Positions 661 to 19,088 of a stretch of DNA of 64,000 nucleotides are shown here, in pieces; within the stretch, counting starts at the first letter, position 1, and each line of letters opens with the position of its first letter. The DNA comes from an uncultured Rhodobacter sp. (GTDB lineage: Bacteria; Pseudomonadota; Alphaproteobacteria; Rhodobacterales; Rhodobacteraceae). Below the pieces are notes generated by a model. That model was not told where the DNA came from and did no database searches. It saw nothing but the letters and a program-made list of their open reading frames with translations. Made by a program: the position numbers and the translations under genes. Location of the stretch: the NCBI GenBank assembly GCA_965200115.1, contig OZ241336.1, forward strand, positions 748,059 through 812,058, read 5' to 3'.

Positions 661-861
661 CCGAAGGCGGCGGTCGGGCGGACCCGGCGGCTCCCGCGCG
701 GGTGGGGACTGTCCATGTGACTGATACATAACGTTTTTCCCGAAAGCGCGTAATCGCGGATTATGACCCGTCCCGCCCGCGCCCGGAGACCGATTCGCGG
801 AGCGGTGGCGAGGTGCCACGGCCCGCGGGGGAGGTCCCAACGCAACAGTAGGAGAAACGTT
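661..861 (+). promoter_or_regulatory. Conserved porin upstream module, copy 1 (AT-rich promoter island, palindrome TAATCgcgGATTA at 751-763, structured leader, GGAG RBS)
   Basis: Near-identical to blocks at 7587-7853(-), 11205-11428(+) and 18816-19081(-). Shared string: TGATACATAACGTTTTTCCCGAAAGCGCGTAATCGCGGATTATGACCCGTCCC...CCCGGAGACCGATTCGCGG...CAACGCAACAGTAGGAGAAA just before the ATG. Confidence 0.6.
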
Positions 862-1839
862 ATGAAGAGACTACTTCTTGCCAGTTCCGCGCTCTGCCTG
901 GGCGCGGGAATGGCGGCGGCGCAGGACATGGAGATGTCCATGTCGTCCGTCACGGTCGGCGGCGACGGGCGCATGGGCGTCGTGTTCGACGACGACGAGA
1001 ACGCGAAATTCAGCAGCCGGGTGCGGGTCAGCTTCGCGCTGGCGGCGACGCTTGACGGCGGCATGACCGCCGGCGGCTCGATACGGGCCGACAACGCCCC
1101 GGGCGGCGCTGCCGGCACCGGGGGAAGCATCTTCCTTGAGGGACCGTTCGGCAAGCTGGCGATGGGCGACGTGGATCCGGGGGCGAAGGCCGCGCTCGGC
1201 AACGTGGACGCGGTCGGCTACAGCCTTCTGGACGAGCACAACAACCTCACCTACATCCGCGGCGGCGACCCGGACCCGACGCTGCTTTACACGCTGCCCA
1301 AGATGGGACCGGTGCAGGCGTACGCCTCCGTCAGCCAGGAGGCCATGGCCGACGGCGTGGAGACGGCCTACTCGCTGGACGAGACGGGAAAGCCCGTGCA
1401 GGCGGCCAAGACGAGGAACGAGGTCTCGTTCGACACGTTCTCGATCGGCGCGAAGGCCGACCTCTCGTTCGGCGACGTCGGCACCGCGTGGCTCGGCGCG
1501 GGCTTCGAGGGCGCGCCCGGCGACGGCGACGGCCACCTGATGGTCGGCGCGGGCGCGAGCGCCTCCGGCTTCACCGGCAAGCTGCTGGTCGGAACGCGGG
1601 ACGACAACAACCAGTACGCGGTCTCCGCGGGCTATTCCGCCGGGGTGATCGGCGCGACGGTCTTCTACGCCGACGACACGGAGATGGACGCCAAGGACAG
1701 CGCGGAGGCGCTCGGCGTCGGCCTTGAGTGGTCGATCGGCGGCGGCGCGGCGATCAAGGGCGGCGTCGTGAACAACATAGGCCAGAACGGGGCAGACGAC
1801 ACGCGCAAGGCCGACCTTGGCGTGACGTTCAGCTTCTGA
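862..1839 (+). CDS. Outer-membrane general porin (paralog 1)
   Basis: Internal ATG of ORF 763..1839, preceded by the GGAG RBS. Signal peptide MKRLLLASSALCLGAGMAAAQ. Gly/Asp-rich alternating beta pattern. C-terminal DLGVTFSF ending in Phe. Confidence 0.85.
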   Translation: MKRLLLASSALCLGAGMAAAQDMEMSMSSVTVGGDGRMGVVFDDDENAKFSSRVRVSFALAATLDGGMTAGGSIRADNAPGGAAGTGGSIFLEGPFGKLAMGDVDPGAKAALGNVDAVGYSLLDEHNNLTYIRGGDPDPTLLYTLPKMGPVQAYASVSQEAMADGVETAYSLDETGKPVQAAKTRNEVSFDTFSIGAKADLSFGDVGTAWLGAGFEGAPGDGDGHLMVGAGASASGFTGKLLVGTRDDNNQYAVSAGYSAGVIGATVFYADDTEMDAKDSAEALGVGLEWSIGGGAAIKGGVVNNIGQNGADDTRKADLGVTFSF

Positions 1840-1858
1840 GCAATTCAGGAAAGGAAAC

Positions 1859-3181
1859 ATGACGATGGAAAACAGACTTATACCCATCGCGCTGCTGGCG
1901 GGGGCGCTCGCGCTCGCGGGCTGCGGAGGCGGTGACGATTCCATGGAAGAGATGGAAGTGGATCCCCCGGTCGTTGAACCGGAACCCGAACCGGAGCCTG
2001 AACCGGAACCGGAACCCGAGCCTGAGCCTGAACCGGAAGTGAAAACTACGGACCTGCTTCCCAACGACGGAGTTCTGAGCGGTGGTCTAAGCGGAGCGAC
2101 CTTCACGGTTCCGAACGGAGGATATCTAAGGATCTCAGGCGTCTGGTATTCATGCACGGGTGGGGAGGCCTGCGTCGCATCCGTTCCCGCTGGCACGATC
2201 GTTAACAGAGTCTCCTATACCGGCGGAACGCTGGAAGTCTCTGCCACAGATCCCAGGCCAACGGACTCAAGTGCTGGAACCACGCCGCGGTCTGCCGAGT
2301 CAACAGACCCGTTGAGCAACGACGTTCTGGTCAAGGCGATAAGAGGCACTGGTAGGGTCGCCGCCGACAATACTGTTTGGAATTCAGGCACGGGTGCGGG
2401 AACCCGGATCACCGCAGATGGTTCGATGGTGGTTTTCACGCCCTTGGGAGGCGACAGAATCCATCTTCGGCTTGCCGCGAGCGGCGGAAGCAACGCCGCG
2501 TATTACGGGTATTGGGCGAAAAGCGGATCGGACATCACAGGCACTTCGCCCGCCGCCAGCTTGGCTGGAAGTACCGACCGCTCTGTCAGCGACGCCGGAA
2601 CCGTTTACGGCGGCGCGACGCCCTATGGAAAGAAGCCCGAAACTCGGCTCGGAACCGCTACGTATGACGGCACCGGAAATGTGCTGCTATACTTCAGCAC
2701 CGACGACTCGGACCATGACAACTGGAGACCTGGAGCGAGTCAAGCGGATCTCAATTTGACCGCCAATTTCACCAGCGGCAATGTCGGCGGAACGATCGAT
2801 ATCGATGATGAGCTCACCGGAATCACGAACCCAACGGGTTCCGGTGGCCAAATCGGCGCTGACAACGACATCCGTCTCGGGTCAACCCCGATAGGAATGG
2901 AAGGAACGTTCTCCGGAACGGATGTTACATTCGTCAATTCAAACGTCGACAGGGAGAACGGACGCTGGGAAGGCGGCTTCTTTGGCCAAACGACGCGAGT
3001 TGCCAATAACGTGCAAATGCACAACCATCCCGACAATGTCGCGGGCGAGTTCACAATCTCCAGACCGGAGATTCGCGCCAACACCCCTGACAGAACGTTG
3101 CTGCAGAACGAACTGCATATACGCGGGGCGTTCACGGGAGGGGCATGCATGACTGGCACTCCAGCGGCAGCCTGCCCCTGA
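1859..3181 (+). CDS. Long lipoprotein with (EP)n linker and TbpB/fHbp-like C-terminal beta-barrel domain
   Basis: Lipobox LALAGC followed by GGG. C-terminal motifs GTATYDGTG, ADLNLTANFTSGNVGGTIDID, WEGGFFGQ, VAGEFTI, IRGAFTGG. Starts 19 nt after the porin stop. Confidence 0.8.
   Translation: MTMENRLIPIALLAGALALAGCGGGDDSMEEMEVDPPVVEPEPEPEPEPEPEPEPEPEPEVKTTDLLPNDGVLSGGLSGATFTVPNGGYLRISGVWYSCTGGEACVASVPAGTIVNRVSYTGGTLEVSATDPRPTDSSAGTTPRSAESTDPLSNDVLVKAIRGTGRVAADNTVWNSGTGAGTRITADGSMVVFTPLGGDRIHLRLAASGGSNAAYYGYWAKSGSDITGTSPAASLAGSTDRSVSDAGTVYGGATPYGKKPETRLGTATYDGTGNVLLYFSTDDSDHDNWRPGASQADLNLTANFTSGNVGGTIDIDDELTGITNPTGSGGQIGADNDIRLGSTPIGMEGTFSGTDVTFVNSNVDRENGRWEGGFFGQTTRVANNVQMHNHPDNVAGEFTISRPEIRANTPDRTLLQNELHIRGAFTGGACMTGTPAAACP
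1976..2038 (+). repeat. Hexanucleotide (GAACCG-like) tandem repeat, about 10.5 units, encoding (Glu-Pro)n
   Basis: Direct reading of gaaccggaacccgaaccggagcctgaaccggaaccggaacccgagcctgagcctgaaccggaa. In frame within CDS 1859..3181. Confidence 0.9.
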
Positions 3182-3207
3182 TTCTCATGACCTAACCCAA
3201 GCCACGA

Positions 3208-3233
3208 CCCCCGGCGGCGCGTTTCGCCGGGGG
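3208..3233 (+). terminator. GC-rich hairpin after the long lipoprotein (CCCCCGGCG-8nt-CGCCGGGGG)
   Basis: Perfect 9-bp arms 27 nt after the stop. The same hairpin sequence recurs at 14068-14092. No clear U-tract here. Confidence 0.5.
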
Positions 3234-3336
3234 TAACTCCAAAGGGGCGAGAGCGATGCCCGCCCGGCGGCCATGGGTCCGGCGCGGCGGCACGCTCCGC
3301 CCGCAACCCTTTTCCAGAGAACATGAAGGTGGAACG

Positions 3337-4356
3337 ATGAAAGCGAATAATCCAGCGAAACGCATGGGAACGGCCATGGCCGCGCTCGCGGCAACCGCTG
3401 CGCTCACCGCCTGCGGCGGCGGCGGGGGCGGAACCCCGCCCGACCCGCAGCACTTCCAGGGCAAGAATGATAGCTTGGTGAACCGGATTTCGGGCGCGGC
3501 GACCTCTGAGGAGGCCATCGCCCTCACCGCGATGACCGTCGGGGTGGACTACGCCGACGGGGGAGCGACACTGGCGGACCCGGAGGAGATCAGCGTGAGG
3601 ATATTCCGCACCGCCCCGGACGCGGTGCCGACCGTCGAGCTGACGCGGGGCGACGACGTCAGGACGTTCGGCCCCGCCCACGCCTCCGGGAGGGACAACT
3701 ACCGCGTTCCCCCGTCGGGCGAGGGCGCTCAGGACAGAAGTAACCTGTGGACGTGGGCGGGTTATCCAATCGACCACGCTAACGGATGGTACGTCAGCAG
3801 CGACGGAGAGCGCAAATCGCAGAGACGGAAGCACCTCATTCCCATCGGCTTCTACCAGGACACCGAAACCGTTGACGTCGAGCGCCGCGCCGTCATCGGC
3901 CTGCGGACCCCGCCCGGCGGCATGCCGACGCACGACGTCACCGCGTCCTACGTGGGGGAGGTCCGGGTTGACACGTGGGCGGTCGGGGACGGCGGGGATC
4001 AACGCCGGTGGGACAGCGAGATTCTCCTTGAGGCCGACTTCGCCGGCGGCACGGTTTCCGGCACCCTGGACAGGTGGGAGCTACAGGATTTCGAACTGGA
4101 GGACGGCACTGTGGTCGACCTGCTGTATGAAGGCACCGCCTACCTGGTTCCGGAAACCCCGATCACCGGCAACGGCTTCAGCGGAAGTCTGGTCGCGGCC
4201 CCGGGCTGCGAGGACTGCTTCGAACTCACGTCCTCCGCCATTGAGGGCGGCTTCTACGGCCCCTACGCGGAGGAGGCCGGGGGAACGCTACAGGGCGGGT
4301 TCACCCTCGACGGCTCCGACCACGTCATGAACGGAATCTTCTACGCGAACCGCTGA
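3337..4356 (+). CDS. Short lipoprotein with TbpB/fHbp-like C-terminal beta-barrel domain
   Basis: Internal ATG of ORF 3256..4356 with a GAAGGTGGA RBS. Lipobox LTAC followed by GGGGGG. C-terminus EGGFYGPYAEEAGGTLQGGF...GIFYANR. Confidence 0.8.
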   Translation: MKANNPAKRMGTAMAALAATAALTACGGGGGGTPPDPQHFQGKNDSLVNRISGAATSEEAIALTAMTVGVDYADGGATLADPEEISVRIFRTAPDAVPTVELTRGDDVRTFGPAHASGRDNYRVPPSGEGAQDRSNLWTWAGYPIDHANGWYVSSDGERKSQRRKHLIPIGFYQDTETVDVERRAVIGLRTPPGGMPTHDVTASYVGEVRVDTWAVGDGGDQRRWDSEILLEADFAGGTVSGTLDRWELQDFELEDGTVVDLLYEGTAYLVPETPITGNGFSGSLVAAPGCEDCFELTSSAIEGGFYGPYAEEAGGTLQGGFTLDGSDHVMNGIFYANR

Positions 4357-4386
4357 CGGACCTTCGTTCCTGACGGACACGGAAAA

Positions 4387-4411
4387 CCCCGGCGACTTCC
4401 CGTCGCCGGGG
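4387..4411 (+). terminator. Intrinsic-type terminator hairpin (CCCCGGCGAC-5nt-GTCGCCGGGG, then CTTTC)
   Basis: Perfect 10-bp arms 30 nt after the stop at 4356. Confidence 0.6.
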
Positions 4412-4444
4412 CTTTCAAGTGCCCAGGCCACGATCTCCGGTCGA

Positions 4445-5117: not shown

Positions 5118-5176
5118 CGTCGGTCGCTCCCCGTGTCCGGTCGATCAAAGGGGGCGGCCCGTAGACCGCCCCCGAC

Positions 5177-5196
5177 GCGCCCGCCGGAACGGACGC
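5177..5196 (-). terminator. Conserved 3' hairpin after the long lipoprotein (8-bp stem, UCCG loop on the minus-strand RNA)
   Basis: The block 5159-5205 is near-identical to 16122-16168. The mismatches become G-U wobbles only on the minus (sense) strand. Confidence 0.45.
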
Positions 5197-5215
5197 GGTG
5201 TCTGTCGTTGGCCAT

Positions 5216-6607
5216 TCAGTCGTCGTCAAGTTCCGCGCCGAACGCGCCCGCGAGCCGCGAGTCGTCGTTGTGGACCTGGAACATGCCGCCCAGCGCCTTG
5301 GGGACGTCGGCTGAGCTGTCGGCGGTGTTAACCCCGCCATATCCGCGCACGAAATACCCGCCGTCATCGGCGATCTTATCGTCCCCGTCATGCCAGCTTA
5401 TGTTGCCGTCACCGGCGCCAAAGGGATTTGCGAGAGCGGCACCCGCGATGGCCTGTTCGTCGAGCTTGACTTCCCAGCCGGGCTTCGCCTTGCCGTCGAC
5501 CTGAAAGCCGTTGACCGTCCCGCTCACCATAGAATCCGTGTAGGTGTCCGAATCGAATTCGGCGGTCAGTTCAACGGAGGCCGTGAAGGCCCCGTGATCG
5601 CTTGAATCGTCGCTGTGGCTTGCGTACTGCCCTGCCGCGCCGCCCCTGTAGGTGGCCGTGTCCGCGGGTGAAGCGGTCCGGAGCGTATAGCCCTTTCCAG
5701 AGTCGTCGGTTCCGGGGCGGCCGTTTAGGTGTAGCGTGAAGTGCTCCAGATCCCCATCCTCGCTTTCCGTGATCCACCATCCGAACCGGAGGCTGTCGTC
5801 GGTAACGTCAGCGGTGATTTTGGCGTCCTTCCCGGCGCTTGGCGCGAAGTGCCATTGGCTTGCGATTAACGTAGTCGCTCCGGTGCTTCTGTTTTTGACC
5901 ACCGTGCAACCGTCTGGCAACACGCAGATGTACCGTCCCGACAGGCCGTAAAACTCGCCCGTCACGGAAGCGCCTACGGTGTGGGAGGTTCGGCCGTTGC
6001 CAAAGCCGGTTACTTTGTCACCGTCCGGAATCGCGTTGATGTTTATCCGATTGGTGTCGCCTCCGACCCAGACTCCGGCATAAAGGTCGGGCGCGTCACC
6101 GCCCGTATCCGCCGTGACGGGCTCTTCCTTCTCGGTCTTCCCGATGGCGAAGATCACGCCGCTTTGCGTTTCGGTACCAGCTTTTCCGCTGTACTCGTAA
6201 CCGTCTATGGTTCCGGCCTTCAGGGGATCGCCCTTGTCCGTCAGATTGCCAAACGAGGTTGACCCTGGATCCCGTATAACGCCGGCTCCTGCAGGCGCGC
6301 CATCAAAGATGTCACTGTCATCGGTGCCGGCACCGTCTTTCCCAAGGTTTCCGAGCGCGGCCACAAGCGCCTCGGCCCTCTTGGCCTTCGCCGTGTTCTT
6401 CGAGGCGTTTTCCTCGCCCTCCTTCACCCCGGCTTCCTTGATTTGATCGGCGGTCATGCACGAGCCGTTGTACTCAATTTCGCCTTCGTCGCAGCCCTCG
6501 CCGCCCGGATCCTTCTTCATAGGGCCGTCACTTCCCCCGCCGCAGCCGGCCAGGGCGAGCGCGCCCGCCAGCGCGAGCGCTGGCATCAATAGTCTGGATA
6601 TTCTCAT
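5216..6607 (-). CDS. Long lipoprotein with TbpB/fHbp-like C-terminal beta-barrel domain
   Basis: MRISRLLMPALALAGALALAGCGGGSDG lipobox. C-terminal ATYRGGAAGQYA, FTASVELTAEFD, SGTVNGFQVDG, LGGMFQV, LAGAFGAE. Confidence 0.85.
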   Translation of the reverse strand: MRISRLLMPALALAGALALAGCGGGSDGPMKKDPGGEGCDEGEIEYNGSCMTADQIKEAGVKEGEENASKNTAKAKRAEALVAALGNLGKDGAGTDDSDIFDGAPAGAGVIRDPGSTSFGNLTDKGDPLKAGTIDGYEYSGKAGTETQSGVIFAIGKTEKEEPVTADTGGDAPDLYAGVWVGGDTNRININAIPDGDKVTGFGNGRTSHTVGASVTGEFYGLSGRYICVLPDGCTVVKNRSTGATTLIASQWHFAPSAGKDAKITADVTDDSLRFGWWITESEDGDLEHFTLHLNGRPGTDDSGKGYTLRTASPADTATYRGGAAGQYASHSDDSSDHGAFTASVELTAEFDSDTYTDSMVSGTVNGFQVDGKAKPGWEVKLDEQAIAGAALANPFGAGDGNISWHDGDDKIADDGGYFVRGYGGVNTADSSADVPKALGGMFQVHNDDSRLAGAFGAELDDD

Positions 6608-6632
6608 ATCTGGTTTCCTTTTCCCGTATGGA

Positions 6633-7586
6633 TCAGAACGCGAACGTCACGCCGAGGTCGGCCCGGCGGTCGCTTTCAACGCCTTCCGCGTCAAAGCTCT
6701 CGGTGGTGATGCCGGCCTTGAGGGAGGCTCCGCCGCCCAGCCCGAAGCTGACGCCCGCGCCGAACGCCTCGCTGACGTCAGAATTGTCATTGAAGAAGAC
6801 GTTCGCGCCCATTCCTCCGGCCGAGTAGCCGAGGGAAACGCCGAAGCGCTCAACGTCCTCGCCCTCGTCCATGCCCTGGCTGCTGCCGACGATCTTGGCC
6901 GTGAAGCCGACGGCGGACACTCCCGCGCCGATCGCGAGCTGGCCGTCCTCGCCCTCGCTGACCGAGCTTTCGTAGCCCGCGGCGACCCAAGCCGTGCCTT
7001 CCCCGATGGTGAGGTCGGCCTTCGCGCCGAGCGCGGCCGTGTCGGCGGCGATCTCCTTCCCGTCCTCGTCGTCCGGGTCGTCATGCTGCCCGAGGGAAAC
7101 GTACGCCTGAACCATGCCCATCTTCGGCAGGGTGTACAGAAGCATCGGGTCCTCCGGATCCGTTCCCCGGATGTACGCGATTTCGTTCGGGTCCCCCAGG
7201 CCGGTGAAGCCCGCTCCGTCAACCTGACCGACCGCGGCCTTCGCGGCTGAGTCAAGCGACCCCATCGCGAGTTTCCCGAACGGACCGGAAAGGGCGATAT
7301 GCCCCTTCGTGCCTGAACTGGCTTTCACCGCTTCATGGGCCCAGAACTCGCCGGACATGGAAAGCCCGCTGTCCAGTTCCTTGGCGACCGAGACCTTCAG
7401 CCGAACGCGGCTGCTGAACCTGATTCCGTCCGGATTGTCCGCGCCGGAATTGTCGTGTGACGTGATCCCCATGCGGGCGTCACCGCTCAGGCTTATCGGC
7501 GACGCCATTTCCATCATGCCGTCCTGCGCGAACGCCACCCCGGCGCTCATTCCCAGCGCTGTGCTGGCAAGAAGTACTCTCTTCAT
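6633..7586 (-). CDS. Outer-membrane general porin (paralog 2)
   Basis: MKRVLLASTALGMSAGVAFAQ signal peptide. C-terminal DLGVTFAF. Conserved leader upstream. Confidence 0.85.
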   Translation of the reverse strand: MKRVLLASTALGMSAGVAFAQDGMMEMASPISLSGDARMGITSHDNSGADNPDGIRFSSRVRLKVSVAKELDSGLSMSGEFWAHEAVKASSGTKGHIALSGPFGKLAMGSLDSAAKAAVGQVDGAGFTGLGDPNEIAYIRGTDPEDPMLLYTLPKMGMVQAYVSLGQHDDPDDEDGKEIAADTAALGAKADLTIGEGTAWVAAGYESSVSEGEDGQLAIGAGVSAVGFTAKIVGSSQGMDEGEDVERFGVSLGYSAGGMGANVFFNDNSDVSEAFGAGVSFGLGGGASLKAGITTESFDAEGVESDRRADLGVTFAF

Positions 7587-7853
7587 AACGTTTCTCCTAC
7601 TGTTGCGTTGTGACCTTCTCCGCGGGCCGGGACGCCATGCGTCCGCCCCCGCGAATCGGTCTCCGGGCGCGGGCGGGACGGGTCATAATCCGCGATTACG
7701 CGCTTTCGGGAAAAACGTTATGTATCAGTCACATGGACGTTCCCTGACCGCGCCGGAGCCGGCGGGGCCGCCCGCTCCGGCGCCGGCGGACCCGCCATCC
7801 GGCGCGGTCCGGGCGGGACAGATCGACACGTCTGCCCGACCGCCGCTTTCGGG
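7587..7853 (-). promoter_or_regulatory. Conserved porin upstream module, copy 2 (palindrome at 7686-7698)
   Basis: Reverse complement aligns base-for-base with copies 1, 3 and 4, including the distal block CCGAAAGCGGCGG..GTGTCGATCTGTCCCGCC. Confidence 0.6.
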
Positions 7854-7989
7854 GGCGGGCGGCCAGCCCGCGTTGGTGGCTTTGGCTTCCCCCTCGCAGC
7901 GCGGGATCTCCCGGCGGACGCTCGAACGTCAGTGCGGGACCGATGCGGCGCACCCCGGCGCCATCCTCGCCGTTCCCGGCCGGGCGGCG

Positions 7990-8160
7990 AGCGCCGTGAT
8001 CTGCTCGGAAAACCGAGGCGGACTGCACCAGCCGGTCGAGATCGCCCGTCTTCCGGAGATGGCCGAGGCGGCCTAGCGTGTCAGTGGCGCGCTGGCGGAC
8101 TTTCTTGCCGTCGCGGCGGTTACCGACGATCTGGAGGTAAGTGTTGGACCCACTGGCCTT
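7990..8160 (-). pseudogene. N-terminal fragment of an IS1634/IS4-family transposase
   Basis: Within ORF 7729..8226: SNTYLQIVGNRRDGKKVRQRATDTLGRLGHLRKTGDLDRLVQS. This resembles the Y-L-Q-x-V...GKVRQR...LGRL N-terminus of that family as I recall it. No DDE domain follows. Confidence 0.45.
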
Positions 8161-8401
8161 GGTGGCACAGCATGGGTTTCTCCATAAGGACACCACATAT
8201 CCCGCGCCCGTTCTACGCCAATGCAAACCCCGGTGCCGACTATACCGATATTCCTACCCCATTCGTGGCGCTACATATTTTGCTGCCCGACCAGCACCAG
8301 CCCGTGCCAAAGTCACGAAATGCATGGGAATCATCAAACGCCAATCGCGAAATCGGCGACCAAACTGTCGAAGATGAGCCAGACATAGGGCGCGGGATGT
8401 T

Positions 8402-10115: not shown

Positions 10116-10116
10116 G

Positions 10117-10812: not shown

Positions 10813-11204
10813 GGATTGCCTCCGTATCTGCCGTCAGCGTGTGCATCCCGCGGTCAAGTTGTCAACAAGTCAGGGTGTGCCGGTGAAATCCGGGGGCGCC
10901 ATCAACGGTTCCCGGGAGCCAACAAACAGGCATTCGATTTCTGGCTAGCCCTTAAGGAAAGCCGACTTCAAACACTCCACGACTTTCTTCCCGCTTCCTG
11001 ATCTCCGCAACATCCTGCCCGATAGCGTTATCCCCCGTCCTCTTCATTCCCTAGGCTTTCCCCGAAAGCGGCGTTCGGACCCGTCTTCCCCAATCGCATT
11101 GGTACCGCAGAGTTTCAACCCCGTATCCGTCCATGCGCTGTCACGCCCTCTCATCGGGCCCGGTTTTCCTGCCCACCGCCGATACGGCCCGCCGCCTCGA
11201 CGCA

Positions 11205-11428
11205 TTTCCGTGTCGATCTGTCCCGCCGGAGCCGCGCCGGATGGCGGCCCCCCTGGCTCCGGCGCGGGCGGGGAACGTCCATCTACCTGATACATAACGT
11301 TTTTCCCGAAAGCGCGTAATCGCGGATTATGACCCGTCCCACGCGCGCCCGGAGACCGATTCGCGGGGCGTTGGCGAGGCGCCACGGCCCGCGGGGGAGG
11401 TCCCAACGCAACAGTAGGAGAAAACGCT
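11205..11428 (+). promoter_or_regulatory. Conserved porin upstream module, copy 3 (palindrome 11317-11329; leader stem 11362-11393)
   Basis: Same block as copies 1, 2 and 4. The distal motif CCCGAAAGCGGCG reappears at about 11058, separated by an insertion of about 140 bp. Confidence 0.6.
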
Positions 11429-12652
11429 ATGAAGAGAGTACTTCTGGCCAGTACCGCGCTCTGCCTGGGCGCGGGAACGGCGGTCGCCCAGGACATGGGC
11501 ATGGACGGGCCGTCGCTCGCCCTGAGCGGCTTCGCCGAGATGGGCGTCGCCGGGTCCAAGGACGACGAGGCGCGGTTCCACACGGACATCGACGTGACGT
11601 TCAAGGCCACCGGCGTGACGGACGCCGGGGTCATGTGGAGCGCGGACGTCGACCTTGACGAGGGCGGGGCCGGCGCGCCCGCCGTCGCCGACGACGAGGA
11701 CGACGGCGGCGCGACGGTCTCGATCAGCCAGCCGGCGGGCTTCGGCACCATCACGATGGGAGACACGGCGGGCACGATCGCGTGGGCGGTCTCCGACGCG
11801 CGGGGCGCGGGTCCGGCGTCCATCCGCGACAACCACGAGCACGGCGGCTCCAGCGGCAACGACGGGCTGGACGCGCGGCACGACAACCAGATCCTGCGCT
11901 GGAACCGCGCCATAGGCTCCGGCTTCAGCATGGCCGCCTCCATCGAGATAGACGACGACGCGGACGGAACGCCGAACACCAACACCTTCGACCCGATCCT
12001 CGGCGTCGGCGGCACGTATTCCATGGGAATGGGCGTCGGCACCCTGGGCCTCGGCGCGGGCTTCCAGATGGGCAGCTACGACCACGAGATCAAGGCGCCG
12101 CAGGTGAACTCGGCCCGCATGGCGGGAACGGAGAACGCCGCGACGTCCATCTGGAACAAGGAAGAGGTTGACGCCACCGCGTTCGGCGCGAGCGTCTCGC
12201 TCGACTTCGCCAACGGCGGCGACGGGATCAAGGTGATCGGCGACGCGGGCATCCTGGAGGCCGACGGCAGCCGCCTCGCCGGCACTCCCAGCGTCGTCAC
12301 GCACGTCGCCGACGTGCAGATGACGCACCTTGGCCTTGGCCTCGGCTACACGGTCGGCGCGATCTCGATCGGCGTGAACGTCGGAACGAAGAACCACGAG
12401 GAAATGGTCGACTCGACGCCCGCCGTCGCCGGCGGCGTCACCAAGGTCGAGACGACCGTCAACGGCGTCGGCTTCAGCGCGGCCTACAAGCTGGGCGGAG
12501 GCGCGGAGCTGCAGTTCGGCGTCGGAAGCCACGAGACCGAGTACGACTGGACGGTTGACGGCGACGCCACCCTCTCGGGGGGGACCGCCGCCGGCTACGA
12601 CCATTCCACCGACACGAACTCATGGTCGCTCGGCCTGAAGTTCGCGTTCTGA
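11429..12652 (+). CDS. Outer-membrane general porin (paralog 3)
   Basis: MKRVLLASTALCLGAGTAVAQ signal peptide. C-terminal SWSLGLKFAF. Confidence 0.85.
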   Translation: MKRVLLASTALCLGAGTAVAQDMGMDGPSLALSGFAEMGVAGSKDDEARFHTDIDVTFKATGVTDAGVMWSADVDLDEGGAGAPAVADDEDDGGATVSISQPAGFGTITMGDTAGTIAWAVSDARGAGPASIRDNHEHGGSSGNDGLDARHDNQILRWNRAIGSGFSMAASIEIDDDADGTPNTNTFDPILGVGGTYSMGMGVGTLGLGAGFQMGSYDHEIKAPQVNSARMAGTENAATSIWNKEEVDATAFGASVSLDFANGGDGIKVIGDAGILEADGSRLAGTPSVVTHVADVQMTHLGLGLGYTVGAISIGVNVGTKNHEEMVDSTPAVAGGVTKVETTVNGVGFSAAYKLGGGAELQFGVGSHETEYDWTVDGDATLSGGTAAGYDHSTDTNSWSLGLKFAF

Positions 12653-12677
12653 AACACTGCGAGAGAGGATAGAAAAG

Positions 12678-14024
12678 ATGAGAATATCCAAATTCATGCT
12701 ACCGGCGGTTATGGTGGCGGGTGCGCTCGCCCTGGCCGGCTGCGGCGGGGGGAGCTCGACTCCGGCCAGCGATCCCGGCGGAAACGACGACGGCGAGGAA
12801 GGCGACATGATGCCACCTGCAAACAATAATGGTGGCTTCTCGGAAGTTATAGTCAGCGGAGGGTTCACCTATGCTGATCGAGTTCAGGGCGAAAACGGTT
12901 CGATCAAAGCCGGGGAAAAAGTGTACCTTGGCGAGGTAGGAACCGGAGCCGTGATCTCTTGCCCGGATACCGCGACAAATGGCTGCCGTTGGAGGTACGA
13001 AAACGGACAACTATACGCGACCGGCGGAGCGATGGGCGATCCCTGGGAAACTCCGGCTGCGCCGAAAGTAGGTGGAGCCACGGCAACCAGCGGCGAAACC
13101 AACCTGAACTGGCTGTCGCAGGATGCGCTTGTCAACGCCATACGGCCGGATAGGTCAGTCGAACTTCAGAGAAGAGCGGCCGGAAGGACCGTGCGGCACT
13201 CATTGGGAGGCGCAGGCACACAATGGGTAGCGCCAGCGCGTGGCGTAGACGGCGATACCGCGACCGCCAACACTTTTGAACGAGAGCTCACGATTGACGA
13301 GACCGAGGATCCAACCGCCGACGCACTCGAAGGCCTCGACACCAACATAAGGCTGGTCCACACCCGCGGTCGGACCGCCAGCGGTACTCCTCTTATACAA
13401 GACGCCGACAGGCCCGATGACTATCTCGTTTACGGCACGTGGGAAACGACCGCCCGCTCCGGACTTGATCCAAAGGGATATCCGAAAGCCGATGTCATGT
13501 GGGCGGGAAGCATTCCCTACACTCAGAGGCTGCGCTTCAGCACCGGCACCGCGAGGTATACTGGCACCGCTTTGGGCCACTATAGAAACAACAACAGTGG
13601 CGCTCCCGGCGGTGCATGGACTGAATGGGAAGGAAACGTGCGGCTGGACGCGGATTTCGCGACAGACAGAGTTGAGGGTATGGTATGGACCGGCATTGCA
13701 GATAGCATAACCGGTGCGGATCGTCCTAATCTCGGAACGATTAACCTGAGAATAACCGATCTCGTAGAAAACGTTGATGGAACCGCGAAGATCGCTGGCA
13801 GCACCGGCGGCGGATCGTGGCAGGCGAACTTCTACGGTACGCGGGCGATCCAAGGACAGCCAAGTGGCGTAGCGGGTGGGTTCAAGGCCGATAGACCCTT
13901 CACCATCGTTCTAGGCGGCGATGACGGAACTACCTATGTAAGCGGGCACTCCGGGGCTACGGTCCAGGGCGCGTTCGGCGCTCACAATACGGGGTGCGTC
14001 CCCGGGGGAACCTGCACGGAGTAG
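12678..14024 (+). CDS. Long lipoprotein with TbpB/fHbp-like C-terminal beta-barrel domain
   Basis: MRISKFMLPAVMVAGALALAGCGGGSS lipobox. C-terminal ARYTGTALGHY, VRLDADFATDRVEG, WQANFYG, GVAGGF, VQGAFGA. Confidence 0.85.
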   Translation: MRISKFMLPAVMVAGALALAGCGGGSSTPASDPGGNDDGEEGDMMPPANNNGGFSEVIVSGGFTYADRVQGENGSIKAGEKVYLGEVGTGAVISCPDTATNGCRWRYENGQLYATGGAMGDPWETPAAPKVGGATATSGETNLNWLSQDALVNAIRPDRSVELQRRAAGRTVRHSLGGAGTQWVAPARGVDGDTATANTFERELTIDETEDPTADALEGLDTNIRLVHTRGRTASGTPLIQDADRPDDYLVYGTWETTARSGLDPKGYPKADVMWAGSIPYTQRLRFSTGTARYTGTALGHYRNNNSGAPGGAWTEWEGNVRLDADFATDRVEGMVWTGIADSITGADRPNLGTINLRITDLVENVDGTAKIAGSTGGGSWQANFYGTRAIQGQPSGVAGGFKADRPFTIVLGGDDGTTYVSGHSGATVQGAFGAHNTGCVPGGTCTE

Positions 14025-14067
14025 CGAAAGTTAACGAACGTCCTTAACAAACCAACCCAAATCACGA

Positions 14068-14092
14068 CCCCCGGCGGCGCGTTCGCCGGGGG
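14068..14092 (+). terminator. Terminator hairpin CCCCCGGCG-7nt-CGCCGGGGG followed by TTTCC
   Basis: Same arms as the hairpin at 3208-3233. It lies 44 nt after the stop at 14024. Confidence 0.6.
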
Positions 14093-14524
14093 TTTCCATT
14101 CCAGGCGGACCGTTGGCTTTCCGAGACGCGTTCCTCGCGGGTTCCGAGCCCATAATGGAGCAGTGCGCGAACAAGTATCCGGTCACGTATATAGACAGTT
14201 CTCCGGGAACACCGGAAGTCACGGCGGAGAATGTAACCGGCATGGGTTCATCTAGCGATTCCCGCCTGTTTGAGGCGGCGGGAGAGATTACCGGCCCGGA
14301 CGTCATAGGGTGAGGACGGTGCGGGAACCGGTGCGAGGTCACCGGTCTTTGCCGCGCCGTCAATCACTGCGCGATCATGGTTTGGTGCCATACTTGGGAG
14401 CGTCATGGCGCCATTGGGGCGGTCAGGCACCGCCTGTCCGGCCGGATTGGCCCCGTCCGCCGTGCGGCGGCGGGTGCGGCCGGAAACGCGGCGTAGAGCG
14501 CGCCGGCGAGCCGGCGCGGGACTC

Positions 14525-14620: not shown

Positions 14621-15556
14621 TCAGTCGGATATGCCCCGCCTGGCCCCGAACGCGCCCACGATGTTTTGCTGCTCGAAGATCCCGGCGGTCTCCGCGTGGG
14701 CCGGCCCCGCGAAGCCGCCCTGTATGCGGTTTCCGGCCCCGCGGCCCGCCGCATAGGTTCCGTCGGCCGCGACGGGAACGTTTAGGAAACGCACTTCGGA
14801 AACCGGGTGCGGCGCGTTGCGGTCGAGATCCACGATGCCGGTGAAGTCCGCGGCCAGCGTCTGGTTTCCGAAACGGTAGTTCAGCTCCGCGTCGCCCTGC
14901 AAAACGTTTCCGCGCCGGTCGCCGCGGGCCGGCGTTCCGACCATCAGCCCGCGCCATTTCGCGCTAGCCGCGGGCCGCGATCCCGTGAGGTCGCTGCCGG
15001 CGGCGGCGACACGGACGGTCAGGGTCACGCCACCGTCCGGCGTCTCGATCGCCCCAAAGCCGTCTTCCACCTGGAACGCGCCGTGATCCAGCCAGCCTCC
15101 GTAGGAACGGCCATTGAAACCGCCGGAACGGCCCCGCGTCTCGATCAGGGTGACGCCGTTCTTCGTCAGGACGGCCCGCGAGCGCCCGGTTCCCGGATCG
15201 GCGGTCCGGAGATCCTCAAGCGTGATCGTGTCCGAGAAACCGCTTTGGGGTTCCGTGAGCGTACAGCGCGTTCCCCGGCAATTCGTGGCGGTGATAAAGT
15301 CCTCTCCCTCGATTTCCGCGTAATAGGTCGAGGCGACGAGCGAATCGATCCGGTCGGATATCGCGGCCGACCGCGCGGTCTGGCCGGCGACCGTCTCCCC
15401 GGGTGGCGCGGATCCCGTCAGGACGCGGGCGCGGTCCGGGGAGAAAGACCCGGGCGACGGTCCGTCCGGTCCACCGCCGCCGCAGGCCGCGAGAAAGGCG
15501 AGTCCGGCGGCGGCCAGGGCCTTCGCTCCGTACCGGGTTTCGGTCGGGTAGTTCAT
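14621..15556 (-). CDS. Short lipoprotein with TbpB/fHbp-like C-terminal beta-barrel domain
   Basis: Internal ATG (MNYPTETRYGAKALAAAGLAFLAACGGGG). C-terminal AKWRGLMVG, GDAELNYRF, LAADFTG, IQGGFAGPAHAETAGIF, VGAFGARR. Confidence 0.8.
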   Translation of the reverse strand: MNYPTETRYGAKALAAAGLAFLAACGGGGPDGPSPGSFSPDRARVLTGSAPPGETVAGQTARSAAISDRIDSLVASTYYAEIEGEDFITATNCRGTRCTLTEPQSGFSDTITLEDLRTADPGTGRSRAVLTKNGVTLIETRGRSGGFNGRSYGGWLDHGAFQVEDGFGAIETPDGGVTLTVRVAAAGSDLTGSRPAASAKWRGLMVGTPARGDRRGNVLQGDAELNYRFGNQTLAADFTGIVDLDRNAPHPVSEVRFLNVPVAADGTYAAGRGAGNRIQGGFAGPAHAETAGIFEQQNIVGAFGARRGISD

Positions 15557-15895
15557 GGTTCGGTTTCCTTCGCTTCGTGAACCGGCGGCGGGAGCGTATC
15601 CCGCCCCGAGACGGCGGGGCAACCCCCCGCGCCGCTGGCGGGCGCGCCCTGTCCCTTCGTCGGGAAATGCCCTAGACCGCCCTCGCGGGGCGGCGCTGGC
15701 TGATGCGGTTGTTTCCCGCTTCCCCTCAATCCCGCCGCTCCCGCCATGACGCCAGCGAGGCCGCCGCGCCTCCCGGCCGCGGGAACCGCCCGTGCGTGCG
15801 CGATGCCGGTTTTCGGGGGGTGTTGGGGCGTCCGAAGCGCGGAAGCCGCTCCAGGGGCCTTTCAGCGGGCCGTGCCGGGCGGCCCATAGGTTCCG

Positions 15896-16077
15896 TCAGG
15901 CGTCTTCCGCCGCGTGTTTCAGGATGTCCGCGCGGATCACGTTCCGCAGCATTTCCCCCCCTTCCATCCCCAGACGACTATCGCCTGGCCCTTGGCGTCG
16001 ATACTATTCACGGTCATTTGCGGCCCGCCGGACTTCAGTTTCACCACGTCACCGGCCTTGATCGGTTGGTCCGCCAT
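15896..16077 (-). pseudogene. Small DUF2158-like gene interrupted at a C7/G7 homopolymer
   Basis: My own translation gives MADQPIKAGDVVKLKSGGPQMTVNSIDAKGQAIVVWGWKGG, then a stop at 15937. One extra G in the run at 15955-15961 would restore ...EMLRNVIRADILKHAAEDA, ending at 15896. The span is 182 nt, not a multiple of 3. Confidence 0.5.
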
Positions 16078-16139
16078 CGTTCGCTTCCTTTCGCGTGCGG
16101 GGGTAAGAGGGCAAGGGCGATCCGTAGACCGCCCCCGAC

Positions 16140-16159
16140 GCGCCCGCCGGAGCGGACGC
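16140..16159 (-). terminator. Conserved 3' hairpin after the long lipoprotein (GCGUCCGC-UCCG-GCGGGCGC on the minus-strand RNA)
   Basis: The block 16122-16168 matches 5159-5205. Confidence 0.45.
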
Positions 16160-16181
16160 GGTGTCTGTTTTGGACAAGAGA

Positions 16182-17717
16182 TCAGTTGGCCGGATCCTCG
16201 TCAGCCCCGAACGCACCCCTCATCCTATGGGTGTTTTCGTATCTCGCCTCAAAGTGGCCCGCCACGGATTCCGGAAGGTTCGGCCTGTCAAGCGTGTTCT
16301 CTTGATAGAGGCCGCCATGCCAGTAACCGTTGGGATCGTCTTTTTCCGTCCCGATGGTCCATGTCGTTTCGGAACGGATGAGTGGTGAAGCATTCTCATC
16401 ACTGCCCGGCTTTATGAAACTGCCGTCAGTGTGTATGCTGGCTTTCATAAGACCGACTTTCCAGTTCTTTGACTGTCCGTCAGCCATGAAGCCTTCAAGC
16501 GTTCCCTCTATCGTTCCGCCTTCATTATTCGCACCGAAATCAGCCGTCAGGGTCGCGGTCGCGGTGAAGTCGCCCGCCTCGTTGTCGGCATTTCCGCTTC
16601 CACGGCTGATAGCGTACTGCCCCGCGGCACCGCCCTTGTAGGTGGCCTTTCCGACTAGTTGCACGGCGGTTGGATTAGTATTTTCATCAGTCCCAGTGTC
16701 GCTCACTACATTTGCGCCTGTCGGGTCAACGAAGTTGGCTAGGTTCCCCCAATCATCACTGGAATCTTCTTCAGGCCGTTCCGTCCAGTAGCCAAAGCGG
16801 ATGAACGAACCGTCTTCCGTCATCGCCATAGCGTTTCTGGCCGGAATGAACCGCCAATCGCCGCCAGCGGGCCTTCCATTCAACGAAGTACAGGCTTGGT
16901 CGAAGTTACAGGCAAAGGTACCTTGCGCGCCGTCCAGCGTACCGGCAACGGTTGCGGTATGCGTTACGTTGCGATTTCCGGTCGGGAAGCCCGTGATTTT
17001 TAGCGTTCCGAAATTGTCGTCAAGAACATGGGCGGGAACGCCAGCAACAGCGGCTACAATGTTATCCGCGTGCTTCGTTGCGAAAGGCGTTGCCGTAGGA
17101 GCGGCCTGGTTGTGGTAGATGACGGCGCGGTGCCTGTCGTCATCGTCGTCCTTGGCGTATTCCGCCCCCTTCCAGCCGGTGATGGCGCGAACGACAGCGT
17201 TCGTCTTTTCAAGAGTGACAGTGTTGCCGTCAGTGCCCCCTGAATCTGTACCATTGTAATCGAGGGTCCCTGTCACTTTGTCAGCGGTATCGAAATCAAG
17301 GGATCCGACTGAGGCCCTGTCGTTTCGAAGGGCGCTCCATGTCCGTTCCAGTTCGAGTGCCGCTGCGGCTGCGTCAGCGTCGGTCGTGTCGGGATAGCAT
17401 ACGCCGTCGCGCTCCACAGTACCTGTACCGCAGGTGCGCGGGTTTTCGGGCGTCGTTATGACGAAGCCCGCCGTCCTGAGCTGCGCCGGGGTCTCCTGGA
17501 CCTCGCCGTCAGCATCACGCGTATATTCGCACCCGTCATCTGCATCGCAGGTGTACCGGTTGGTGTCGTCGCCAAAGTACGCGCCTTTCACGAGCTTTAT
17601 TGTTACGGGATCCGGGTCGGTATCCACCGCCGGGCCGTCACTCCCCCCGCCGCAACCGGCCAGGGCGAGAGCGCCCGCCAGCGTGACGGCGGGCATCAAT
17701 AGTCTGGATATTCTCAT
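16182..17717 (-). CDS. Long lipoprotein with TbpB/fHbp-like C-terminal beta-barrel domain
   Basis: MRISRLLMPAVTLAGALALAGCGGGSDG lipobox. C-terminal ATYKGGAAGQYA, FTATATLTADFG, IEGTLEGF, VAGHFEA, MRGAFGAD. Confidence 0.85.
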   Translation of the reverse strand: MRISRLLMPAVTLAGALALAGCGGGSDGPAVDTDPDPVTIKLVKGAYFGDDTNRYTCDADDGCEYTRDADGEVQETPAQLRTAGFVITTPENPRTCGTGTVERDGVCYPDTTDADAAAAALELERTWSALRNDRASVGSLDFDTADKVTGTLDYNGTDSGGTDGNTVTLEKTNAVVRAITGWKGAEYAKDDDDDRHRAVIYHNQAAPTATPFATKHADNIVAAVAGVPAHVLDDNFGTLKITGFPTGNRNVTHTATVAGTLDGAQGTFACNFDQACTSLNGRPAGGDWRFIPARNAMAMTEDGSFIRFGYWTERPEEDSSDDWGNLANFVDPTGANVVSDTGTDENTNPTAVQLVGKATYKGGAAGQYAISRGSGNADNEAGDFTATATLTADFGANNEGGTIEGTLEGFMADGQSKNWKVGLMKASIHTDGSFIKPGSDENASPLIRSETTWTIGTEKDDPNGYWHGGLYQENTLDRPNLPESVAGHFEARYENTHRMRGAFGADEDPAN

Positions 17718-17744
17718 ATCTGGTTTTCCTTTCGTGTCCGGGGA

Positions 17745-18815
17745 TCAGAAGCTGAACGCGACGCCGAGCGACCACCTGTTGGTGTCGGTGTCCCGAGAAT
17801 CCTCGTCCTCGATCTCCGGCCAGTCGGTCTCCGCGGTGCTCGCGCCGAACTTCAGCGACGCGCCGCCGCCCAGGTCGTAGTTGACCGCCATTCCGATGCC
17901 GGTGGTGTCGCGGTCGTCACTCTCGCCCAGCGCGTCGGTTTCCTGGCTTCCCATGTTGACGCTCAGGGAGACCGGACCCGCCGCGTAGCCGATGCCGAGG
18001 CCGGCGAAGTTCACCGTCCGCTCGAAATTCTCCGCGTCCACGCTGTCCTCGTGGTGCTCCCGGACGTAATTGCCGATCAGGGTGATCCCGTAGGTGGTCG
18101 TCACGTCCACGCTCGCGCCGACCGCGGTCATGTCGTTCGCGACGACCGCGCCGTCACGCATAACGGGATCGCCGTCGGCGTCCAGGACGGCCTCCCTGCC
18201 CATCTGGTAGCCGACGCCGGCCCCGACGGTGTTGCCGCCCATGTCCATCGAGTACTTTCCGCCGAGGCCGACGATCGCCTCGCCGTCGCCGCCCTTGCCG
18301 CCGATCTCGTCGTCCAGCTCCAGGGAGCCGGCGAAGCCGAAGCCGCTGAACGAGTAGTCGTAACGGAGGATCTGGTGGCCTTCGTGCTTTGCGTCAAGTC
18401 CGGCGTTGTCCATGCGGCCCGGGCTGCGGTGCTCGTCGCCGATGGATCCGGCGAGGCCGTCGTCGGTCTCCCGGAGCGCGTAGTCGAGCGCGCCGTCGGT
18501 GTCGCCGAGCGTCAGGCTGCCGAACGGCCCCTTCAGGTGGACGGCGATGCCGCCGGACTCGTCCCTGCTTGAACTGTCGCCGTCGGCCAGCTCGACCGTG
18601 GTGCCGAACTCGACCCCGCCGTCGGTGGCGCCGGACATGACGAACTCAAGCCCTATGTCGGTGTGGAACCGGGCGCTGCCGTCCTTGTCGCCGGCGATCC
18701 CCATCTCCGCCGCGCCCTTGAGCTTGATCGGCGGCTCCGCCATGGCCATGTCCTGCGCCGCCGCCATTCCCGCGCCCAGGCAGAGCGCCGTGGTCGCCAT
18801 CAGTATTCTCTTCAT
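17745..18815 (-). CDS. Outer-membrane general porin (paralog 4)
   Basis: MKRILMATTALCLGAGMAAAQ signal peptide. C-terminal RWSLGVAFSF. Confidence 0.85.
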   Translation of the reverse strand: MKRILMATTALCLGAGMAAAQDMAMAEPPIKLKGAAEMGIAGDKDGSARFHTDIGLEFVMSGATDGGVEFGTTVELADGDSSSRDESGGIAVHLKGPFGSLTLGDTDGALDYALRETDDGLAGSIGDEHRSPGRMDNAGLDAKHEGHQILRYDYSFSGFGFAGSLELDDEIGGKGGDGEAIVGLGGKYSMDMGGNTVGAGVGYQMGREAVLDADGDPVMRDGAVVANDMTAVGASVDVTTTYGITLIGNYVREHHEDSVDAENFERTVNFAGLGIGYAAGPVSLSVNMGSQETDALGESDDRDTTGIGMAVNYDLGGGASLKFGASTAETDWPEIEDEDSRDTDTNRWSLGVAFSF

Positions 18816-19081
18816 AGCGTTTTCTCCTACTGTTGCGTTGGGACCTCTCCGGCGGGCTCGGGCGCCATGCGTCCGCCCCCGCGAATCGGTCTCCGGGCGC
18901 GGGTGGGACGGGTCATAATCCGCGATTACGCGCCTTCGGGAAAAACGTTATGTATCAGGTAGATGGACAGTCCCCGACCGCGCCGGAGCCGGCGGGACCG
19001 CCCGCGCAGGAGCCGGGGACCCGCCGTCCGGCGCGGTCCGGGCGGGACAGATCGACACGCCTGCCCGGCCGCCGCTTTCGG
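18816..19081 (-). promoter_or_regulatory. Conserved porin upstream module, copy 4 (palindrome at 18916-18928)
   Basis: Reverse complement aligns with copies 1-3. It is closest to copy 2 over the leader. Confidence 0.6.
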
Positions 19082-19088
19082 TGAATAA

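Follow-up and report, generated by a model that had tools for sequence, protein, structure and literature searches.

A repeated module 5' of four porin genes

The window considered here, a stretch of 64,000 nt from an uncultured Rhodobacter sp. (contig OZ241336.1, positions 748,059 to 812,058), contains four genes for general porins (P1–P4), and directly 5' of each of them lies one copy of a module of about 200–270 bp. All four gene products were assigned to the Porin_4 family (PF13609) with 79–119 bits, compared to a Pfam gathering cut-off of 27. Using a repeat finder and a four-way alignment, the four module copies were found to be 88–94% identical over 180–280 nt, and the flanks upstream of them were found to be unrelated to each other. 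We regard it as moderately probable that the module is the shared promoter, 5' untranslated region (UTR) and signal-peptide cassette of a gene family of porins and TbpB-like lipoproteins, and that this cassette evolves in concert. Coordinates refer to the window throughout, and L-numbers denote related loci on metagenome contigs. The module copies and the porin genes are the following:

655–861, plus strand: module copy 1, 5' of porin P1; distal part short by a deletion of about 75 nt
7587–7860, minus strand: module copy 2, 5' of porin P2; full length
11056–11428, plus strand: module copy 3, 5' of porin P3; boundary motif (11061) and GTGTCGATCTG (11209) separated by an insertion of about 125 nt
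18816–19085, minus strand: module copy 4, 5' of porin P4; full length
862–1839, plus strand: porin P1, Porin_4, 325 aa
6633–7586, minus strand: porin P2, Porin_4, 317 aa
11429–12652, plus strand: porin P3, Porin_4, 407 aa
17745–18815, minus strand: porin P4, Porin_4, 356 aa

The start of the module is marked by the boundary motif CCCGAAAGCGGCGG (at 660, 7853, 11061 and 19082), which was found at the modules only. Read from 5' to 3', the module opens with a boundary hairpin and a GC-rich inverted repeat that is prone to indels. These are followed by the AT-rich island, which is invariant and some 60 nt long, by a leader with a stem-loop and by a stretch with the ribosome-binding site (RBS). The homology runs past the module into the signal-peptide codons of the porin genes and then fades. 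Apart from the leader stem-loops, which are given further below, these parts were located as follows:

722–764, plus strand: P1, AT-rich island (722–750) and interrupted palindrome TAATC-GCG-GATTA (751–763)
7685–7727, minus strand: P2, AT island, palindrome and putative −10 (GATTAT, 7690–7685)
11288–11330, plus strand: P3, AT island, palindrome and putative −10 (GATTAT, 11325–11330)
18915–18957, minus strand: P4, AT island (one mismatch), palindrome and putative −10 (GATTAT, 18920–18915)
838–861, plus strand: P1, invariant single-stranded stretch CAACGCAACAGTAGGAGAAA including the Shine-Dalgarno sequence AGGAG (850–854), then the spacer to the ATG at 862
7591–7610 (minus), 11404–11423 (plus) and 18821–18840 (minus): the same CAACGCAACAGTAGGAGAAA stretch in the other copies
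7742–7813 (minus, P2), 18972–19042 (minus, P4) and 11218–11271 (plus, P3): distal inverted repeat with a stem of about 30 bp, 5' of the AT island

Four occurrences of the 29-nt AT island were counted in the window, that of P4 with one mismatch, and the 13-nt palindrome and the 20-nt RBS context were detected exactly four times each; the number of matches expected in shuffles is 0 for the two long motifs. An earlier reading of this DNA, made from the sequence only, had pointed out the four shared blocks, the AT-rich island, the palindrome and the RBS context. All of them were recovered, the blocks in their places directly 5' of Porin_4 genes, the island in all four copies, and the palindrome and the RBS context with coordinates that proved exact. 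The long distal inverted repeat of P2, P3 and P4 was absent from that description. It is GC-rich (z-scores of −1.9 to −3.1), prone to indels and missing from P1 and from some of the copies at related loci. P1, L004:10001 and L029:10001 have lost the distal hairpins and kept the rest of the module. The distal inverted repeat may insulate the module against transcription from upstream. One metagenome contig (run X2) joins the P1 upstream flank to a full-length P2-like module (window 680 / 7832), a hint that strains differ in whether they carry the 75-nt deletion at P1.

Protein-guided retrieval yielded 15 further module copies in related metagenome contigs, all of them directly 5' of porin genes, which brings the total to 19. 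A covariance model of the leader (R1) recovered these copies and gave no other credible match in 230 kb (window plus loci). All 19 share the same orientation and lie immediately 5' of a Porin_4 start codon with a strong AGGAG. As the module is present in independent assemblies from several samples, it is no assembly artefact. Two copies (L029) belong to a second genome, represented by a contig of 2.9 Mb. The orthologous porin of this genome differs from that of the window at 24% of the fourfold-degenerate sites (76% identical), and the module copies of window and L029 show an overall identity of 84–88%, with hardly any variation except in the hairpin tip. The idea of a lineage-specific module was dropped once this module (module 1) had appeared in the 2.9 Mb contig. 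A dispersed repeat of the repetitive extragenic palindrome (REP) type or resembling a miniature inverted-repeat transposable element (MITE) was likewise rejected, all 19 covariance-model matches and all BLAST matches being located 5' of porins in one orientation. At L022:100–300 (porin at 298) a decayed copy was observed, with a 2-bp deletion in the palindrome spacer (TAATC-G-GATTA), a replaced AT island and a weakened hairpin; the lipoprotein gene that follows is truncated and adjoins a UPF0236 transposase gene.

Scans of genome contigs with CGTAATCGCGGATTATGACC and of metagenome contigs with TAATCGCGGATTATGACC gave chance matches only; both patterns, with their …TATGACC end, were over-strict, and absence from these collections is not established by them. 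The sequence at L029 reads ...GATTATGGTCC, so the …TATGACC ending is not invariant. A more tolerant pattern would be, for example, TAATCGCGGATTATG-N70-100-AACGCAACAGTAGGAG. Viral contigs scanned with a gapped module pattern yielded 0 matches, and no match was found in a plasmid collection. Read depth over the module reached 5–10x baseline and five more porins are listed on the 4.2 Mb source contig, which suggests that the source genome holds more module copies. Public runs containing the sequence were sponge metagenomes and runs of one coded organism; runs X1–X4 showed even coverage including intergenic regions, as for DNA. Since these runs are sponge metagenomes and the nearest named porins come from Rhodobacterales, the host is an uncultured, sponge-associated Rhodobacterales bacterium.

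Mosaicism and concerted evolution

Nucleotide identity among the four window copies amounted to 89–94% in the core of the module (positions −150 to −1) and 70–81% in its distal part, to 73–88% in the first 75 nt of the porin coding sequence and 67–70% in the rest of it, and the mature porins share 26–50% identity at the protein level. A recent duplication cannot account for this contrast between core and mature porins. The earlier description of the blocks as alignable almost base-for-base is appropriate for the core and fails in the distal part, with its deletion in P1 and its insertion in P3.

Within 200 nt of the four window copies, all three 2:2 partitions (P1P3 against P2P4, P1P4 against P2P3, P1P2 against P3P4) are interleaved. 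P1 agrees with P4 at 709–710, with P2 at 717–720, at 775 and in the RBS spacer, and with P3 in the hairpin. For 16 aligned copies (15 distinct), 308 of 496 informative site pairs were incompatible in the four-gamete test, and 140 of 210 when the hairpin columns were left out. The lower bound of Hudson and Kaplan for recombination (Rm) came to at least 10–14 events (at least 10 without the hairpin columns). Moreover, contigs encoding an identical porin were found to carry different hairpin alleles (L023/L026 versus L024/L025). Gene conversion between the copies, in short tracts and at high frequency, is very probably responsible. The proposal of the sequence-only reading that gene conversion keeps the module homogeneous is well supported by the mosaics, the four-gamete failures and the swaps of hairpin alleles and modules between orthologs. 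Between the two genomes, the core is conserved beyond the level of synonymous sites, which indicates purifying selection in addition to conversion. Two hallmarks of an upstream homology box (UHB) were observed: the 5' region and the signal peptide are far more alike than the mature coding regions, and the copies recombine with each other. A check for an invertible promoter showed one orientation for 19 of 19 copies, no recombinase in the window cluster and a weak reverse similarity to L021 (p ~0.013).

Not every porin of the family is preceded by module 1. At L028, which belongs to the same 2.9 Mb genome, the ortholog of P3 (83% porin identity) is accompanied by a 34%-identical lipoprotein and by a different "module 2" of about 440 nt, while two other porins of this contig carry module 1. 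Module 2 (L028:9560–10000 and L021:1240–1637, 70.6% identity over 456 nt) is unrelated to module 1 and common to the P3-like porin of L028 and a P4-like porin from another metagenome (L021); the region 5' of the L006 porin is of a third type. No fewer than three upstream classes therefore circulate among these porins, and the class may differ between orthologs.

One alternative overlaps with the shared cassette and is, in our view, unlikely. The module, the signal-peptide block of the lipoproteins and two GC hairpins of the operons (T1 and T2, see below) would chiefly be homology arms for exchanging porin and lipoprotein bodies among paralogs and strains. The benefit would be surface variation towards host phagocytes or phages, with the expression signals conserved as a by-product. 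Indeed, every variable body is bordered by such conserved punctuation, the hairpin alleles and segments of the module have been reshuffled, and the orthologous operon pair just described combines an 83%-identical porin with a 34%-identical adjacent lipoprotein and an upstream module of the other class. Transposase, integrase and toxin-antitoxin genes are also abundant in the related loci. However, conserved blocks are expected to recombine passively wherever they are homologous. There is no sign of a dedicated recombinase, of silent cassettes or of a single expression site. Each copy comes with a complete upstream module and a start codon, and no recombinase gene lies near the window cluster. 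The alternative joints in metagenome contigs have short sides (20–35 nt), which is typical of branch points in an assembly graph. Still more doubtful is the notion that the conserved blocks form a modular plug-and-play architecture, selected because promoter classes can be combined freely with the bodies of porins and surface lipoproteins. These parts would be exchanged among paralogs and co-resident strains of an obligate sponge symbiont, and each of the three or more interchangeable upstream classes would bring an expression programme of its own. Such recombination-driven surface variation in a mutualist would be analogous to the antigenic-variation families of pathogens.

Promoter candidate, palindrome and leader stem-loop

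For the shared expression cassette, a promoter and a leader are likely to be contained in the module. The promoter is most likely to be sought within the AT island, because the upstream flanks are unrelated, some copies lack the distal part and the island is the only AT-rich part. In P1, an A/T tract precedes a putative −35 TTTCCC (736–741), which is followed after a 17-nt spacer by a putative −10 GATTAT (759–764). The upstream ATG in the palindrome (open reading frame 763–1839) was rejected as a start codon: it is in frame in P1 and out of frame in P3 (11329, 100 nt upstream), and it has no Shine-Dalgarno sequence. Comparing the island by eye with EcfG, RpoH, sigma-54, FNR/CRP, Pho box, CtrA and OmpR motifs revealed nothing convincing. 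A half-match to the FNR/CRP box, CTGAT-N4-AACGT near −42, was recorded as a lead only.

The palindrome had been taken by the sequence-only reading for the operator of a dimeric regulator. A repressor or activator bound to TAATC-GCG-GATTA would co-regulate all operons with a module and, as the site overlaps the −10, would occlude RNA polymerase. The 13 nt are invariant in 18 of the 19 copies from two genomes while their neighbours vary (G/A before, AC/GT three bases after), the lone copy with the 2-bp spacer deletion (L022:298) has decayed otherwise too, and the weak −35 suggests a factor-dependent promoter. On the other hand, the arms comprise only 5 bp. Among shuffles of the 56-nt island, 25% contained a comparable inverted repeat (arms >= 5 bp, spacer <= 6 nt), as did 91% of those of the 200-nt module, and the palindrome alone is thus not beyond chance. 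It is not specially conserved either, since the surrounding ~85 nt are almost equally invariant. No further site was found in the window, even with 2 mismatches allowed, and neither the window nor 10 related loci show a regulator gene in consistent linkage. Finally, the best −10 candidate, GATTAT, includes the right arm, so the invariance of the palindrome is explicable without an operator. The operator proposal is therefore unsupported and appears distinctly unlikely.

The second conspicuous element of the core is the leader stem-loop, located in the window at:

788–836, plus strand: P1, basal GACC/GGTC, middle TCGCGG/CCGCGG, hypervariable apical hairpin (allele A)
7612–7661, minus strand: P2, apical allele B, GGACGC-ATG-GCGTCC
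11354–11402, plus strand: P3, apical allele A
18842–18891, minus strand: P4, allele B with an A.C mismatch; weaker, z = −2.1

All 19 copies share this extended stem-loop, which is 49–51 nt long and has an apical hairpin of 4–7 bp and a loop of 3–5 nt. Its tip is the one hypervariable spot of an otherwise invariant leader and occurs in 13 distinct apical sequences. Compared with dinucleotide shuffles, the 53-nt segment with the stem-loop reached z-scores of −3.3 to −4.1 in five of seven alleles (weaker in P4 and L5_c), and when the variable part alone was shuffled, 8 of 12 alleles gave p <= 0.034. In the alignment fitted to the covariance model (19 copies, 14 distinct), 88.7% of the cells were paired versus 43–50% in slid controls. 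The sequence-only reading had described an outer stem enclosing an inner hairpin with preserved pairing. The stem-loop is indeed present in every copy; its pairing, however, is not perfect throughout, as the inner hairpin of P1 (TGGCG-agg-TGCCA) contains one G.U pair, that of P4 (GGACGC-atg-GCGCCC) one A.C mismatch, and the outer stem of P4 is imperfect too. The hairpin types A and B pair in registers shifted by one nucleotide, and are therefore alternative hairpins and not the outcome of column-wise covariation. In module 2 (L028, L021) the GATTCG motif of module 1 is kept and followed by a shorter hairpin of 8 bp, with one compensatory change from A-U to G-C between the two loci.

Directly after the stem-loop follows CCAACGCAACAG without a T run, and a terminator scan listed no terminator in the modules; an intrinsic terminator or attenuator was ruled out on these grounds. 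Between the end of the stem-loop and AGGAG lie 13 nt, and folds of the whole leader leave the Shine-Dalgarno sequence free (P2) or pair it weakly and inconsistently. As it is not consistently sequestered, an RNA thermometer or riboswitch platform was ruled out as well. Because a U-tract and consistent Shine-Dalgarno sequestration are both missing, we prefer, tentatively and by analogy, a role of the stem-loop as a determinant of mRNA stability or processing. Comparison with Rfam, which the sequence-only reading had proposed, gave no family match: there were 0 matches at gathering thresholds in the whole window, and at E <= 10 the segment 7560–7880 produced irrelevant matches only (10–19 bits at cut-offs of 50–150).

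Several observations weigh against a promoter followed by a leader that functions as RNA. The candidate TTTCCC-N17-GATTAT agrees with the consensus at 7 of 12 positions, with A2 and T6 of the −10 present, and a scan with the sigma-70 consensus (at least 9 of 12 positions) detected no site in any module. In alphaproteobacteria of high GC content, departures of promoters from the consensus are frequent, so that the promoter assignment is weakened, not excluded, by this failed match. Part of the AT island, GTGACTGATACATAACGTTTTTCCCG (window 719–744), resembles L021:1388–1413 in the opposite orientation (23 of 26 positions, p ~0.013 versus shuffles), a likeness which hints at a protein-binding site independent of orientation rather than a directional promoter. 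For the stem-loop, the co-variation put forward by the sequence-only reading did not become significant: one pair of 17 (G-C to U-A) was changed on both sides, 90 of 500 shuffles reached the observed score, and RNAalifold reported 0 compensatory pairs for the sequence alignment. Taken alone, the apical hairpin surpassed shuffles in only 4 of 13 alleles, and folds of whole leaders were not better than shuffles (z of −0.5 to −0.8). No RNA runs with the module sequence were found, and the reads of the only RNA-labelled runs were also without match. A hairpin would, moreover, be equally present in DNA and may act at that level. The structured 5' leader of the earlier reading nevertheless stays plausible, given a stem-loop in 19 of 19 copies that is stabler than shuffles.

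Very improbable is a long leader, in which the whole module of 200–270 nt would be transcribed from a promoter further upstream and would form a regulatory leader with several hairpins, for instance a riboswitch or a platform for small RNAs. It would accommodate the several stable hairpins (boundary hairpin, distal stem of ~30 bp, leader stem-loop). However, the upstream flanks have no common sequence and hence no common promoter, the distal hairpins have been lost in the three copies named above that retain the rest, and Rfam offered no match at gathering thresholds or at E <= 10. A mobile element, MITE-like or derived from an insertion sequence and inserted 5' of porin genes with an outward promoter, is hardly credible: it would explain the sharp common 5' boundary motif and would suit the many mobile elements in the related loci, but 19 of 19 copies are linked to porins in the same orientation, the homology extends into the coding sequence, neither terminal inverted repeats nor target duplications were seen, and the viral contigs contained no copies.

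In the shared cassette that we favour, each operon would supply a porin together with a surface-type lipoprotein, and sometimes with a second, TbpB-like lipoprotein, under the control of the module as the common means of expression. The promoter would consist of an UP-like A/T tract, the weak −35 TTTCCC, the 17-nt spacer and the −10 GATTAT. Transcription from it would produce a 5' UTR of about 95–100 nt, composed of a short C-rich 5' segment, the 49-nt stem-loop with its invariant base and hypervariable tip, and an unpaired CAACGCAACAGU-AGGAG. The stem-loop would act in the mRNA, determining stability or processing like the hairpins of the ompA 5' UTR. Gene conversion and purifying selection together would keep the core alike among ancient paralogs, and alternative porin and lipoprotein variants would thus receive the same transcription and translation signals. 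Of this picture, the anatomy, the distribution of copies, the mosaicism and the stability of the fold are shown by the sequences; promoter, transcription start, function as RNA and co-regulation are inferred.

Operons, surroundings and related systems

The porins are the first genes of operons, which extend over 862–4356 (plus), 5216–7586 (minus), 11429–14024 (plus) and 14621–18815 (minus). A lipoprotein of 440–511 aa is encoded 20–27 nt 3' of each porin, and operons 1 and 4 contain a second lipoprotein gene:

1859–3181, plus strand: lipoprotein A1 (lipobox LAGC), second gene of operon 1
5216–6607 (minus), 12678–14024 (plus) and 16182–17717 (minus): paralogs of A1
3256–4356, plus strand: lipoprotein B1 with a TbpB-type C-terminal beta-barrel (TbpB_B_D, 31.3 bits at a cut-off of 26; TbpB chains in PDB, E = 3e-6)
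14621–15622, minus strand: weaker paralog of B1
3204–3235, plus strand: conserved GC hairpin T1 3' of lipoprotein A1 (ACGACCCCCGGCGGCGCGTTTCGCCGGGGGT); also in operon 3, 14064–14095
5152–5205 and 16115–16168: different GC hairpin T2, common to operons 2 and 4

The first lipoproteins share a conserved signal peptide (…LAGALALAGCGGG) and only 26–32% identity beyond the first 30 residues. Their similarity to slam_lipo and TbpB_B_D was weak, with 20–28 bits at cut-offs of 26–80 and below all curated cut-offs. A profile of 12 lipoproteins found no match among the PDB sequences, and a structure model of lipoprotein A3, built from a 6-sequence alignment, was unusable (predicted local distance difference test, pLDDT, of 32.5). 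As a second lipoprotein gene follows in some loci, T1 and T2 may be intercistronic and not terminal. No Slam gene was seen. We know of no earlier description in which TbpB-like lipoproteins accompany a general porin.

Between operons 2 and 3, the stretch 8000–11050 has a lower GC content (54–61%) and contains a gene with a metallo-beta-lactamase fold (8402–9607) and open reading frames without family matches; it looks like an inserted island. A gene for a protein with AAA-ATPase_like and PDDEXK_9 domains lies at 19654–21249 (minus) and was also found beside porin operons in L005, L006, L020, L022 and L028; with 5–10x baseline depth in metagenome contigs it is multi-copy and possibly mobile. 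Toxin-antitoxin genes (PIN/PhdYeFM, PemK, DarT) and transposase genes were observed in the flanks of L004, L022 and L029, a row of three tyrosine-recombinase genes at L004:18817–21053, and integrase genes near one related locus. The remaining window is ordinary chromosome, with ABC and Tct transporters, asd, pepA and leuS. Two repeats were recorded there, one of five to six tandem units of 84 nt (28 aa) at 60975–61478, within the open reading frame 60071–62347 (plus) for a 758-aa protein of the OmpA family, and a 164-nt direct repeat (35169–35332 / 35484–35647, 95% identity, spaced 315 nt) between the genes 34952–35341 and 35959–37341.

The closest parallel known to us is found in Borrelia. 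In the erp families, a conserved promoter, leader and signal-peptide start precede divergent surface-protein paralogs, with recombination between the copies and co-regulation. The upstream homology box in question is that of the ospE/ospF/elp (erp) lipoprotein families of Borrelia burgdorferi (Marconi et al., 1996, J Bacteriol 178:5615, as cited in PMC6719511). The porin module is likewise a conserved upstream block on divergent surface-protein paralogs with recombination between the copies. It differs in the organism, in its location in a chromosomal cluster instead of Borrelia plasmids and in the operons of porin plus lipoprotein, and there is no sequence relationship. Furthermore, operator proteins are known for erp and none is known for the porin module. 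To our knowledge, the leader stem-loop with its hypervariable tip has no described counterpart.

In Escherichia coli, the mRNA of the abundant outer-membrane protein OmpA has a long 5' UTR with stabilising stem-loops and an unpaired ribosome-binding region. Similarly, the porin leader combines a stable hairpin with an unpaired RBS 3' of it, has no terminator U-tract and leaves the Shine-Dalgarno sequence unsequestered. No sequence or Rfam relationship exists, however, and the ompA hairpin is located at the very 5' end, compared to about 17 nt from the predicted transcription start here. Concerted evolution of paralogs is familiar from babA/babB and hop of Helicobacter pylori, opa of Neisseria and vsp/vlp of Mycoplasma (conserved 5' UTR plus signal peptide). 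Conserved ends, variable middles and mosaics from gene conversion between paralogs are common to these families and the porin family. In contrast, the repeats, silent cassettes and site-specific inversion that serve phase and antigenic variation in the pathogens were not found here, and the host of the module is a sponge symbiont. Like TbpB and the Slam-dependent surface lipoproteins (PF01298, NF041636; PMC5449769), the downstream lipoproteins possess a lipobox, and the product of 3256–4356 contains a TbpB-type barrel above the Pfam cut-off. Unlike them, their partner is a general Porin_4 porin and not a TonB-dependent receptor, and the first lipoproteins remain below the cut-offs.

A 2026 study reported that porin transcripts are co-downregulated during host embryogenesis in a Rhodobacterales sponge symbiont (PMC13543439). 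That symbiont may or may not be the host of the module; such co-downregulation is compatible with a shared cassette. Upstream homology kept by gene conversion is well known from pathogens and is met here in a new organism and an unusual combination of genes, a general porin with TbpB-like lipoproteins. If the favoured interpretation is true, a sponge symbiont expresses a repertoire of very different pairs of porins and surface lipoproteins from one standardised cassette, and cassette, porin and lipoprotein are reshuffled by recombination. The module would then be a compact test object for studies of promoters, leaders and mRNA stability in Rhodobacterales. It would also offer concrete access to the variation and co-regulation of the surface by which an uncultured symbiont meets phages and the phagocytes of its host.

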